A stretch of DNA of 20,594 bases from a virus (Duplodnaviria > Heunggongvirae > Uroviricota > Caudoviricetes). Position 1 is the first letter of the stretch. The number at the start of each line of letters is the position of its first letter. Where the stretch lies: IMG/VR virus record IMGVR_UViG_2526164690_000051. One strand, given 5' to 3'. Under the pieces are notes generated by a model, which searched no databases, had not been told where the DNA came from, and was given only the letters and a program-made list of their open reading frames with translations. The translations under genes and the position numbers were made by a program. Shown here piece by piece: positions 5,868-8,757 of the stretch.

Positions 5868-7695
5868 ATGAGCACTTCCGCATACAAGAGCAAAATTCGA
5901 ACACTCCAGTGCGCGTTAAAAAACGGTGAATTTGAACCATTCATACAACATATCCGTTTTCCATACTTTAAAAATATAGAGCAGAATGCAAGGATCGATT
6001 TTCAGTTCCCTATAACGGCTTTAGTAGGAAAAAATGGAACTAATAAAAGTTCTGTTATCAAAGCGCTATTTGGTTGCCCACATGGTAAAAATATAACTCG
6101 TTATTGGTTCACAACTGAAACAGATGAGTTTCCTGACCTAAAACTTGCTGATGGCAGTTCTCTTAAGCCTAGATATATATATGGATATAAAAATGCTGAT
6201 GGCCGTTTAGTTGAAATACTCCAAGCGCGTATCAATGCTACCAAGAAAACAATCGATTATTGGGAAACAAGTCGACCATCTGTTGGTGATAACATGGAGA
6301 GTATTTCGGATGATCTGGGTGCTAATAGTAATGCAACCAGATGGAAAAAATCAAGAAGGGATTGATTTTCCTAGATTTCAGATCGGAAATAAGTGCATTT
6401 GATAGATGTATGTATCACTCTGATTTTAAATTAAGAAAGAAGAAGAGTGGTGTATTAATTACAAAGCAAGACTATATCAGAAGCAAATCTAAATATATAA
6501 AGAAAGCTTTTGATGAAAAGCTAAGTAATTTAAGACTTTGGGGGACGGAAACCATTGTTAAAAATATAACCTTGGCGCCAGAACTAGTTGAGCACGTCTC
6601 ATTTATATTAGGAAAAAAATATAAAGTCATTAAATTTCTTGAGCATCGGTTATTTGGAACCAGAGGAGGAACCGCTTTACTTTCAACTGATAAGTTGAAC
6701 TATACAGAAGCTTTTGCTGGAAGTGGTGAATTTGCAATAGTTTCACTAATACTCAATATTTATTCGGCCAAACCTAATTCATTAATTCTTCTTGACGAAC
6801 CAGAAGTTTCACTTCACCCTGGTGCACAGAAAAGGATGATGGATGTTCTGTACTCTATTGTTGAGCAGAAAAAACATCAAGTGGTAATATCAACCCATTC
6901 TCCTGTTATTGTGAACACTCTTCCCAAAGATGCTATTAAATTATTTGTTTTTGATGAAGAGAGTGAAACAGCTAAAATAGTTCAAAATATAGCACCGGAT
7001 GAAGCTTTTATAGAGCTAGGGCATGATATTAACAAGAAAACAATAATTGTAGAAGATAAATTAGCTAAAGCAATTATAGATAAAGCGATTAAAAATTATG
7101 AAAGATTAAGTTTATCATTTAGTGTAAGTTATATACCAGGTGGTTCGGAGACAATTTTAAGCAAGCATCTTCCCAGTTACGCTGTGGTAGAACGCAATGA
7201 TATTTTGTTTTTACTTGATGGTGATAAAAACAAAAAATAAAACCAGTAAGAATTAGTGAAATTGCTGATGCTGATTTAGTTAATACAATGTGCAAATATT
7301 ATGGTTGCGAGTTAATTATCAATGCCAGTGGTAGTAATGGCAAAAAAAATGAACAAGAATCTAATAGACTCAAAAGGCAAGTGCTTGAGTATGCATTCAA
7401 TAAAGTGCAGTATTTACCATTTGATACTCCCGAACAATTACTCATTGAAAAGGCAATTACGCCAAGTGAAAAAGAAATAATTGATTCACAGACCTGGAGT
7501 TCTAATGATCCAGAGCTGTATAAGAATCAAATAAGATTATTAGCGCAACACCTGTATGATAAAGAAGAAGTAAATGCAGAGGAAATTTTTTGCCTCCAAA
7601 AAATGATGACCGCAAGACTTAAAAATGAATTGCCTGAATTTATAAAAATAAGAAAAATAATTACTCAGGCTCTTGACCGTGGTATCATTAGGTAG
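5868..7695 (+). pseudogene. OLD/Gabija/PARIS-like ABC-type ATPase fused to TOPRIM-like nuclease domain; split into three ORFs by two frameshifts in A6 runs
   Basis: ORF 5868..6365 has Walker A (ALVGKNGTNKSS). ORF 6341..7240 has signature-like AGSGEFAIVSL, Walker B LILLDEPEVSLHP, H-loop ISTHSP, then TOPRIM-like TIIVEDK and LFLLDGD. ORF 7288..7695 is in frame with the open frame from 7228. One extra A in the runs at 6345..6350 and 7232..7237 fuses all three into about 609 aa. Confidence 0.6.
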
Positions 7696-7718
7696 TGATT
7701 CTGGATGCAGAGGGAAAA

Positions 7719-8757
7719 ATGAAAAAAATCAAAGTGTTTGACTTCTTTTCCGGTTGTGGTGGAACCAGCCAAGGTTTCCATCAAGCTGGAATGGATATTG
7801 TTTTTGGCCTCGATTTCGACGTTGATGCAGCCAGTTCATTTCGTGCAAATTTCCCGCAAGCTGCTTTTATTAACTCGGACATTAGGTTAATCGACAACAA
7901 TGCCATAAACAAGTTAGTAAAAAACATCGTAATGATTACATTCTTTTTTCAGGATGTGCGCCTTGTCAACCGTACTCTAAGCAAAACTCAAATAAAAAAA
8001 TGATGATCCACGATTAGATCTATTAAAGGAATTCAGTCGTTTTGTAGAGCATTATATGCCTGATTTTATTTTTGTTGAAAACGTGCCAGGAATGCAAAAG
8101 TTTAACAAAAATGAAGGAACATTCATGATGTTTTTAGAAATGCTTTCATCAAAGGGATATAGTGTAGATTATAAAGTAATGCCAGCTGCGTGGTACGGTG
8201 TACCACAGACGCGAGAAAGATTAGTGCTCATTGCATCCAAGGATTTTTATGTCGCATTGCCTTCTCCTACACATGGGGTTGGAAATACTCCCTATTCAAC
8301 AGTAAAGGACTGGATCGCTAATTTACCGAAGATAGAAGCAGGAGAAAAGCATAATAGTATTCCTGATCATGAAGCTGCACGCTTATCAGAGCTTAATTTA
8401 CGTAGAATAAAATGCACTCCTGAAGGTGGAAGTCGAGAATTTTGGCCAGATGAATTGATTTTAGAATGCCATCGTAACCATAAAGGGCATACAGACGTAT
8501 ATGGACGTTTGAGTTGGGACAAACCAGCCAGCGGACTAACAACTCGTTGTATTAGCTATTCAAATGGACGTTTTGGACATCCAACACAAAATCGAGCAAT
8601 ATCTGTTCGTGAAGCAGCGTGTCTACAAACATTTCCTTTGGATTATAAATTTATTGGTTCTTTGCAATCTCGGGCTCGTCAAATAGGAAATGCGGTCCCT
8701 CCGAAGATGTCTGAAACGATTGGAAAACATTTGCTTAATATAATCAAAGCCTCCTAG
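7719..8757 (+). pseudogene. DNA (cytosine-5)-methyltransferase; split by two homopolymer frameshifts (T6 at 7944..7949, A7 at 7994..8000)
   Basis: Motif I FDFFSGCGG in ORF 7695..8003 (start likely Met at 7719 after AGGGA). Motif IV GCAPCQPYS lies in a second frame (7949..8017). Motifs ENVPGM, QTRER and GNAVPP are in ORF 8056..8757. A +1 insertion in each run gives a contiguous enzyme of about 346 aa. Confidence 0.7.

Follow-up and report, generated by a model that had tools for sequence, protein, structure and literature searches.

The question raised by this locus is what a nuclease gene and a cytosine methyltransferase gene, lying side by side in a prophage of Escherichia coli, do together. 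The two genes form a cassette in IMG/VR record IMGVR_UViG_2526164690_000051, a stretch of 20,594 nucleotides that was analyzed at its full length (the window) and that is a Rac-type lambdoid prophage. An earlier reading of the sequence alone (the sequence-only reading) had proposed a two-gene immunity cassette, possibly a restriction-modification-like or methylation-aware defence module, in which an OLD-type nuclease is paired with a C5-cytosine methyltransferase. Our analysis favours a two-gene, ATP-dependent restriction-modification-like module carried as prophage cargo, a reading to which we give a probability of about 50%. The linkage of the two genes, conserved across phyla, carries most of the argument and is described below after the two proteins themselves.

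The nuclease gene (window positions 5868..7695, plus strand) is broken in this copy into three open reading frames, 5868-6365, 6341-7240 and 7288-7695, by two single-A deletions. When repaired, it encodes a protein of 609 amino acids, exactly the length of its intact orthologue WP_000107695.1 (RefSeq label 'ATP-dependent nuclease') and the length that had been estimated from the raw sequence. All of the motifs quoted at that time are present in the repaired protein: the Walker A motif ALVGKNGTNKSS at residue 51, the signature-like AGSGEFAIVSL at 284, the Walker B motif LILLDEPEVSLHP at 306, the H-loop ISTHSP at 341, TIIVEDK at 392 and LFLLDGD at 447. Pfam recognized only an ABC-type ATPase (AAA_15/AAA_21, 1e-20), extending to about residue 350, and the ATPase also matched PDB entry 8UX9 at 1.2e-7. 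No TOPRIM, OLD-TOPRIM or DUF4435 model of Pfam matched either the whole nuclease or the C-terminal 230 residues of 58 homologues, and no Pfam family of any kind matched this C-terminal region in any of these 58 members. A profile of the C-terminal region, compared with PDB sequences, gave chance-level matches only (E of at least 0.18). NCBIfam searches of the nuclease returned sub-threshold matches to PtuA, MAD3 and TIGR04435 ('restriction system-associated AAA ATPase'), with no family assignment.

The nature of the C-terminal domain emerged from PADLOC profiles, structure prediction and residue conservation. HEC-04 was the best PADLOC profile (6.6e-35), and ATPase-Toprim_I-B (8e-27) and AriA (2e-22, ATPase only) matched too; the HEC-04 match covered profile positions 160-383 of 494 only, by residues 232-459 of the 609 of the nuclease. 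When the C-terminal domains of the 58 homologues were searched by themselves, 45 matched HEC-04, 10 the TOPRIM protein of HEC-01B and two the ATPase-Toprim protein of retron type I-B. The HEC-04 matches fell at profile positions 311-384 and spanned E319, D375 and D377, which by alignment offset correspond to E396, D451 and D453 of the nuclease. Defence was abolished in a HEC-04 mutant in which all three of these residues were replaced by alanine, and likewise in a separate Walker A mutant, K62A (bioRxiv 10.1101/2024.01.29.577857). An AlphaFold2 model (predicted local distance difference test score, pLDDT, of 86.9), made from P0001, which is 99% identical to the RefSeq-derived sequence, had Gabija GajA and T. 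scotoductus OLD as its top full-length Foldseek matches, over 620-650 alignment columns. From the secondary structure of this model, conservation and the HEC-04 alignment, the TOPRIM core is placed at residues ~392-453 (window 7041..7228, plus strand), in the order strand-ED, helix, strand, helix, strand-DGD. A comparison of 77 full-length sequences from many phyla found no variation at K60, D310, E311, H344, E396, D397, D451, D453 or K553, and E523 is kept in 76 of them.

The family to which the nuclease belongs is discrete and uniform in length (about 590-620 residues), and an exhaustive profile search collected 572 clusters of it at 50% identity (E<=1e-30). Both hallmarks of the OLD family are present in the protein, namely an ABC ATPase with Walker A, signature, Walker B and H-loop, and, at the C-terminus, a TOPRIM domain with the Glu, the DxD, a further acidic residue and a Lys; recognition by curated TOPRIM, OLD-TOPRIM or DUF4435 sequence models is missing. 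Judged by these residues and by the modelled fold, the nuclease is an ABC-ATPase/TOPRIM enzyme of the OLD-family type whose active site is predicted to be intact. The earlier description of an OLD/Gabija/PARIS-like ATPase-TOPRIM protein is borne out by the AAA_15/AAA_21 matches, the fold shared with GajA and T. scotoductus OLD, the HEC-04 matches of the TOPRIM domain and the invariant residues, but the protein is not a member of Gabija or PARIS and Pfam detects neither TOPRIM nor DUF4435 in it.

The methyltransferase gene (7719..8757, plus strand) is likewise split by two single-A deletions, into open reading frames 7695/7719-8003 and 8056-8757. Its intact orthologue, WP_000721512.1, is a protein of 346 amino acids labelled 'DNA cytosine methyltransferase' in RefSeq, and the repaired gene encodes a protein of the same length. 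It matches PF00145 at 4.9e-61 (207 bits vs. a cut-off of 22) and TIGR00675 at 1.4e-48 (166 bits vs. a cut-off of 100.65), as well as the PADLOC profiles MTase_II (1.3e-96), DruM (1e-91) and DrmMII (3e-62). The motifs of 5-methylcytosine (m5C) methyltransferases cited by the sequence-only reading were all found in the repaired protein, with FDFFSGCGG at residue 7, PCQ at 82, ENV at 121, QTRER at 164 and GNAVPP at 324. With motifs I, IV, VI, VIII and X in place and a score above the curated cut-off, the repaired protein is a complete C5-cytosine methyltransferase.

Homologues of the methyltransferase with 60-78% identity occur across Enterobacterales, Pseudomonas, Burkholderiales and other groups. 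Within this clade, many residues of the variable target-recognition region are invariant, and this high conservation suggests a single specificity for the whole clade. A homologue with 63% identity carries the automatic label 'M.HgiDII', which is not evidence of specificity. By sequence, the closest solved structures are, surprisingly, the catalytic domains of eukaryotic DNMT1 (E 1e-38), which score far better than the bacterial enzymes M.HaeIII (1e-20) and M.HhaI (1e-14), and this clade of bacterial and prophage enzymes may stand near DNMT1's relatives in bacteria.

Do these two genes belong together, or are they two unrelated pieces of cargo that happen to be neighbours, one an orphan methyltransferase shielding the prophage's DNA against restriction by the host and the other an OLD-type defence gene that stands alone? 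Orphan methyltransferases are frequent in lambdoid phages. Class 1 OLD genes and HEC-04 act alone, and the slot occupied by the cassette carries unrelated cargo in other prophages, all of which would fit a chance meeting. Against it stands the distribution of the pair. A scan of one genome per species yielded 80 loci with a nuclease homologue, spanning Proteobacteria, Actinomycetota, Bacteroidota, Bacillota, Planctomycetota, Acidobacteriota, Myxococcota, Patescibacteria and other groups, and in 74 of them an m5C methyltransferase gene lies no more than 6 kb from the nuclease gene. The methyltransferase gene is directly adjacent and on the same strand in 58 of the 80 loci (42 downstream and 16 upstream of the nuclease gene), and the stop codon of the first gene often overlaps the start codon of the second. 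Four of the six loci without a methyltransferase are contig ends. Among viral contigs in IMG/VR, the methyltransferase is adjacent in 59 of 64, in some cases convergently, and the three contigs without one stop at the contig edge. A nuclease gene without a methyltransferase is rare (two of about 76 informative loci).

The linkage is also reciprocal. A reverse search that started from three methyltransferase homologues found a gene for an ATPase of about 600 residues directly upstream each time, and the pair lay in a different slot in each host: between Q and the lysis genes in Klebsiella, by the integrase in Yersinia and by the repressor in Pseudomonas. The pair thus moves as a unit between different prophage slots. 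In addition, across 55 pairs the identity matrix of the nuclease correlates with that of the methyltransferase (r=0.75, Mantel p about 0.001), and the two proteins co-evolve. Because the pairing is conserved, reciprocal and co-evolving, it is all but excluded that two unrelated cargo genes came to lie together by chance. The pairing of the nuclease with a Dcm-like methyltransferase, first noticed in this one prophage, is kept across phyla and phage contigs and holds in both directions. Gene content, catalytic motifs, fold and this conserved, reciprocal and co-evolving linkage form the established part of our account.

Few other genes accompany the pair. Clustering of all neighbouring open reading frames revealed only two further recurrent genes, one encoding Vsr (13 loci) and the other a GHKL+Hypoth_Ymh protein (10 loci), and no canonical restriction-enzyme gene was conserved among the clustered neighbours. 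Eight loci (L062, L063, L066, L069, L071, L076, L079 and L083) contain a four-gene operon made up of the m5C methyltransferase, a GHKL (HATPase_c_3)+Hypoth_Ymh gene, the ABC-TOPRIM gene and Vsr, all co-directional and with overlapping ends; the GHKL+Ymh protein is of the 'R.NmeAIP' type, which has no assigned nuclease fold. In two other loci (L068 and L072) the stop and start codons of the ABC-TOPRIM gene and of a complete HpaII-like type II system overlap, so that the two are coupled; this system consists of an M.HpaII-like methyltransferase and R.HpaII, a PF09561 enzyme, and in three more (L013, L022 and L042) a SmaI-like restriction enzyme is encoded near the ABC-TOPRIM gene. Of 5426 complete E. 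coli genomes, 32 carry the cassette in intact form, among them O103 and O111 strains of Shiga toxin-producing E. coli as well as ATCC 8739.

How might such a pair work? In the restriction-modification-like module that we favour, the methyltransferase would place 5-methylcytosine on a fixed short motif and so mark resident DNA as self. The ABC ATPase of the nuclease would serve as a nucleotide-driven clamp or sensor on DNA, and its C-terminal TOPRIM domain would cut nucleic acid by two-metal catalysis involving E396, D451, D453, E523 and K553. An ATP-gated clamp or sensor coupled to two-metal TOPRIM cleavage is the pattern known from other OLD nucleases (PMC6755086). The nuclease would attack unmarked DNA, such as that of an incoming phage or plasmid. 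Loss of the cassette would expose the chromosome to the same attack, and the pair would in this way be self-stabilizing. The logic of restriction and modification is proposed because the nuclease is rarely found without the methyltransferase and moves and co-evolves with it; the rarity of a nuclease gene on its own is the asymmetry that this model predicts, since the nuclease would be toxic to unmarked DNA. The nuclease may read no site itself, in which case the methyltransferase would be its DNA-recognition partner, in a manner similar to that of the Res subunit in type III systems. We propose this role because the nuclease gene is usually first and often translationally coupled, because there is no controller protein, and because methyltransferases of other clades, and even complete type II systems, are tolerated by the family. 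Methylation-sensitive cleavage, an ATP requirement, complex formation and anti-phage activity are what we infer for the pair. Architecture and conserved linkage support the module put forward by the sequence-only reading, in which defence activity and the role of methylation are putative.

Several points weigh against this explanation. No experiment has been carried out on this nuclease family, and TOPRIM was never mentioned in the 2008 REBASE-wide classification of type II folds. A nuclease gene that comes first, with no controller protein, makes safe entry into a new host hard to explain if the nuclease acts alone. Where a complete HpaII-like system (L068 and L072) or a SmaI-like enzyme (L013, L022 and L042) is present, a second site-specific nuclease would be redundant, and these loci are hard to reconcile with the ABC-TOPRIM protein as the only site-specific nuclease. 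Furthermore, several relatives of the same architecture are abortive-infection effectors, among them HEC-04/IbfA (bioRxiv 10.1101/2024.01.29.577857; PMC12111858), and some cut tRNA and not DNA, namely PARIS AriB and, according to a 2026 preprint, P2 Old.

These relatives are also the starting point for the main rival, which we regard as rather unlikely. It holds that the ATPase-TOPRIM protein is a sentinel similar to PARIS or HEC-04, silent until infection, when it would destroy tRNA or nucleic acid in bulk and halt the cell, and that the methyltransferase is its sensor, bait or antitoxin. The trigger could be, for example, a phage that blocks methylation, depletes S-adenosylmethionine or makes anti-restriction proteins, and methylation would then be no self mark for site-specific restriction. 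The closest defence profiles, those of HEC-04 (a single-gene ATPase-TOPRIM protein needing Walker A and the EDD triad) and of the homologous abortive-infection gene IbfA, agree with such a guard, but HEC-04 and IbfA work alone, without a methyltransferase, and the HEC-04 profile was matched only in part. PARIS and P2 Old, which share the architecture, are reported to be tRNases triggered by phage factors. The coupling of the nuclease gene at times to complete HpaII-like or SmaI-like type II systems, or to GHKL+Ymh genes of the 'R.NmeAI' type, would make sense if the nuclease were a backup layer, and in a survey of BREX by the Aravind group, OLD-ABC/TOPRIM modules that are attached to modification-based systems were described as suicidal effectors in a backup role (PMC12839542). 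However, in most of our loci the methyltransferase is the sole partner and there is no primary restriction component, so that there would be nothing to back up. A near-obligate, co-evolving methyltransferase is most simply explained by protection from the nuclease.

If the restriction-modification-like reading is correct for the E. coli cassette, it may extend further. Tentatively, we suggest that the cassette represents a widespread and unnamed class of ATP-dependent restriction-modification systems, amounting to a fifth, methyltransferase-linked class of OLD proteins, in which the methyltransferase would both mark self and recognize DNA for the nuclease. The logic would resemble that of type III systems, with an unrelated motor and an unrelated nuclease fold. 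In the four-gene operons, the ABC-TOPRIM protein could supply the nuclease domain for which the GHKL+Ymh ('R.NmeAI' type) protein has no assigned fold.

We also examined whether the cassette of this prophage is functional, as both of its genes are interrupted. There are four frameshifts, in the nuclease gene after window positions 6344 and 7231 and in the methyltransferase gene after 7918 and 7993, each of which amounts to one A lost from a run of seven or eight. The sequence-only reading had noticed the pair of A-run frameshifts in the nuclease gene, but the total is four, with two further ones in the methyltransferase gene. Alignment to genomes and the repaired translations place them, all on the plus strand, in an A6 run at 6345..6350 (A7 in four complete genomes; codon 159 of the nuclease gene), an A6 run at 7232..7237 (A7 in the reference; codon 455, just past the DGD motif), an A6 run at 7919..7924 (A7 in the reference; codon 67 of the methyltransferase gene) and an A7 run at 7994..8000 (A8 in the reference; codon 92). 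Insertion of the four A's gives translations identical to WP_000107695.1 and WP_000721512.1.

The remainder of the window bears on the origin of these frameshifts. Positions 243-20594 align to E. coli O103 strain RM8385 with no mismatches and seven single-base gaps, and the alignment to three more complete genomes (2013C-4225 and two O111:H11 strains) is equally good. Over 20,359 nucleotides, the window therefore has no substitutions relative to the four genomes, and all seven differences are single-base losses in homopolymers: T3 and T5 at 404-405, A7 at 6345, A7 at 7232, A7 at 7919, A8 at 7994 and A6 at 19614. The losses outside the cassette lie in a DUF3927 gene (the two at 404-405) and at the 3' end of the integrase gene (19614). 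The source assembly has systematic homopolymer errors that extend beyond the cassette. The other E. coli copies, from the 32 complete genomes and from some twelve prophage contigs of IMG/VR, are all intact. Because no substitution accompanies the seven indels and every other E. coli copy is intact, the frameshifts most likely reflect under-calling of homopolymers in the source assembly, and the native cassette is probably intact.

It could be argued that the frameshifts are real and that the cassette is a dead pseudogene pair in this strain, inactivated by slippage in A-runs, perhaps because it is costly. Slippage of this kind is a common real mutation, both genes were hit twice, and, of the runs of at least 7 nucleotides, four of seven are shortened inside the cassette vs. 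none of 12 outside. However, four independent real frameshifts without any accompanying substitution would be very unlikely when the window is otherwise identical to four independent complete genomes, three of the seven losses (in T3, T5 and A6 runs) lie outside the cassette, and the frameshifts occur in no other RefSeq or IMG/VR copy. We consider true decay improbable. The broken reading frames of this window are better taken as a warning about homopolymer errors than as a sign of gene decay.

The surroundings of the cassette are those of a cargo slot. Flanked by hokD and a DUF977 gene, the cassette is encoded on the opposite strand from the replication genes and the nin/Q genes, within a low-GC accessory island that extends from the hok locus to the DUF977 gene (5749..8790) and was delimited by GC content and by the break in homology: GC is 0.31-0.38 across 6001-8500 vs. 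about 0.50 in the flanks, and homology to other lambdoid phages ends near 5748 and restarts near 8790. On one side is the hokD-type type I toxin gene (5567..5722, minus strand; from the list of open reading frames and the RefSeq annotation of matching genomes). At the other end, a perfect, palindromic, GC-rich hairpin (AAAGCCTCCTAGGAGGCTTT, 8746..8765), flanked by T-runs on both strands, overlaps the stop codon of the methyltransferase gene and scores as a terminator on both strands, making it a predicted bidirectional terminator. GC content, open reading frames and the hairpin score together confirm the earlier picture of an AT-rich, opposite-strand block with hok on one side and a bidirectional terminator on the other. 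No sigma-70 site that a promoter scan placed directly upstream of the nuclease gene was convincing, and shuffled sequence had promoter-like sites at least as often.

The HokD-type toxin adjoins the cassette in E. coli only, and a Klebsiella cassette (L153) adjoins HicAB instead. We rejected hok as a functional partner of the cassette, as other taxa do not keep it beside the pair. What lies between hok and the DUF977 gene in Rac-like prophages differs among strains, and the site is one of variable cargo. Elsewhere the same slot holds small nin-type open reading frames, QueH, an alpha/beta hydrolase or, in phage vB_EcoS-666R9, a gene for a DNA-binding protein. In E. coli strain 23713 (L088) it holds genes for a SIR2-family protein, a non-canonical nucleoside triphosphate pyrophosphatase, an adenosine deaminase and a TetR regulator, a cluster that may be another defence-type cargo. 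Only some of the cargoes have a defence-related look. The earlier statement that this prophage position is a defence hotspot fits insofar as the site is variable in content; as a defence hotspot it is a candidate.

Other features were found elsewhere in the prophage. The left end of the window (1-242) does not align to RM8385, in which an IS66-family ISCro1 element is nearby, and a match to the small RNA STnc100 lies on the minus strand at 207-379. Three prophage tRNA genes are encoded on the minus strand at 1147-1398, for Arg-UCU, Arg-UCG and a CAT anticodon (Ile in the RM8385 annotation), adjoining the late-gene regulator region. It is known that phages can counter tRNA-cutting defences of the OLD and PARIS type with tRNAs of their own. 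On the minus strand, Rfam detected C4 antisense RNA, isrK and the c4 a1/b1 target at 3350-3548, upstream of a gene of the ORF6N (antirepressor-like) type; these matches identify a P1/P7-style immunity RNA module inside this Rac-like prophage. The RalA antitoxin small RNA (219 bits) of the RalR/RalA type I toxin-antitoxin pair was found at 18249-18427 (minus strand), and the small RNA pair SraC/RyeA and SdsR/RyeB at 19988-20132, at the integrase end of the prophage.

A large and well-delimited OLD subfamily with a cytosine methyltransferase as its nearly constant companion would add a context with an obvious and easily tested self/non-self signal. Should the nuclease read methylation status, a TOPRIM nuclease and an ABC motor would join the repertoire of restriction enzymes. 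The cassette could also affect phage sensitivity, DNA uptake and 5-methylcytosine patterns in E. coli strains in regular use.

Finally, we compared the cassette with known systems. Classes of OLD proteins are defined by gene context, the gene being alone, beside a UvrD-like helicase, in a retron or split as in PARIS (PMC6755086, PMC10568477), and none of the described OLD contexts tested fits the cassette. Sequence similarity to the Class 1 OLD proteins (P2 Old and T. scotoductus OLD, PDB 6P74) is detectable in the ATPase only, and Pfam finds no OLD-type TOPRIM in the nuclease. Class 1 is also defined as an isolated gene, whereas the cassette nuclease has a conserved partner. Gabija (Class 2) was rejected, as no UvrD-like GajB helicase occurs in the cassette of the window or among the recurrent neighbour clusters. 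Retron type I-B (Retron-Eco8, Class 3) was rejected as well, the neighbours being hok and the DUF977 gene with no reverse transcriptase, and Rfam detecting no retron RNA in the window. PARIS has a related ATPase (AriA) and is also often borne by phages or prophages, but it has no methyltransferase and requires separate AriA and AriB (DUF4435 TOPRIM) proteins; the cassette encodes one fused chain with no AriB or DUF4435 match. The closest described relative of the nuclease is HEC-04/IbfA, in which an ABC ATPase and TOPRIM are likewise fused in one chain (Payne et al. 2024, bioRxiv 10.1101/2024.01.29.577857; PMC12111858). However, the cassette nuclease is about 100 residues longer, has other N-terminal inserts and another helical C-terminus, and lies almost always beside an m5C methyltransferase, whereas HEC-04 and IbfA act alone; neither a full-length profile match nor a stand-alone gene was found. 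Despite the DruM and DrmMII profile matches, Druantia type II and DISARM class 2 do not apply, as there are no DruE/F/G or DrmA/B/C partner genes and the flanks are prophage genes.

No named system matched the pair, in agreement with the claim of the sequence-only reading that none joins an OLD-type nuclease to a Dcm-like methyltransferase, and full-text literature searches found no paper describing such a pair, although REBASE and Krishnan et al. 2020 were outside the search and a prior mention is possible there. PADLOC has no model for the pair and would report the methyltransferase and, at best, a partial HEC-04 match. The profile checks that had been recommended for the repaired proteins thus returned AAA_15/AAA_21, PF00145 and a partial HEC-04 match, but neither TOPRIM nor DUF4435, nor a characterized system for the pair.

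The nearest parallels in organization are restriction-modification systems. Like these, the cassette is a mobile, co-evolving pair of methyltransferase and nuclease genes, found in both orders and convergently, with Vsr sometimes attached, and its genes are linked and inherited together as in type II systems. It differs in that the nuclease is an ABC-ATPase/TOPRIM protein and not a PD-(D/E)XK, HNH, GIY-YIG, PLD, half-pipe or SF2-helicase Res enzyme; its fold is none of those known for restriction endonucleases that, without ATP, cleave in or close to a defined site. The REBASE-wide fold classification has no TOPRIM class and leaves unassigned the nuclease domains of putative R genes of the GHKL type (R.HgiDII and R.NmeAIP). 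The NmeAI type, in which an m5C methyltransferase accompanies a GHKL/Hypoth_Ymh 'R' gene and Vsr (PMC2441816, PMC3787668), similarly links a methyltransferase to a non-canonical ATPase 'restriction' gene without a recognizable nuclease fold, but it was described with three genes only and no ABC-TOPRIM gene, and the E. coli cassette has neither the GHKL gene nor Vsr. The cassette looks like an undescribed restriction-modification-like defence module, not categorically new, whose novelty lies within two known kinds, the OLD-family defence nucleases and the restriction-modification systems.

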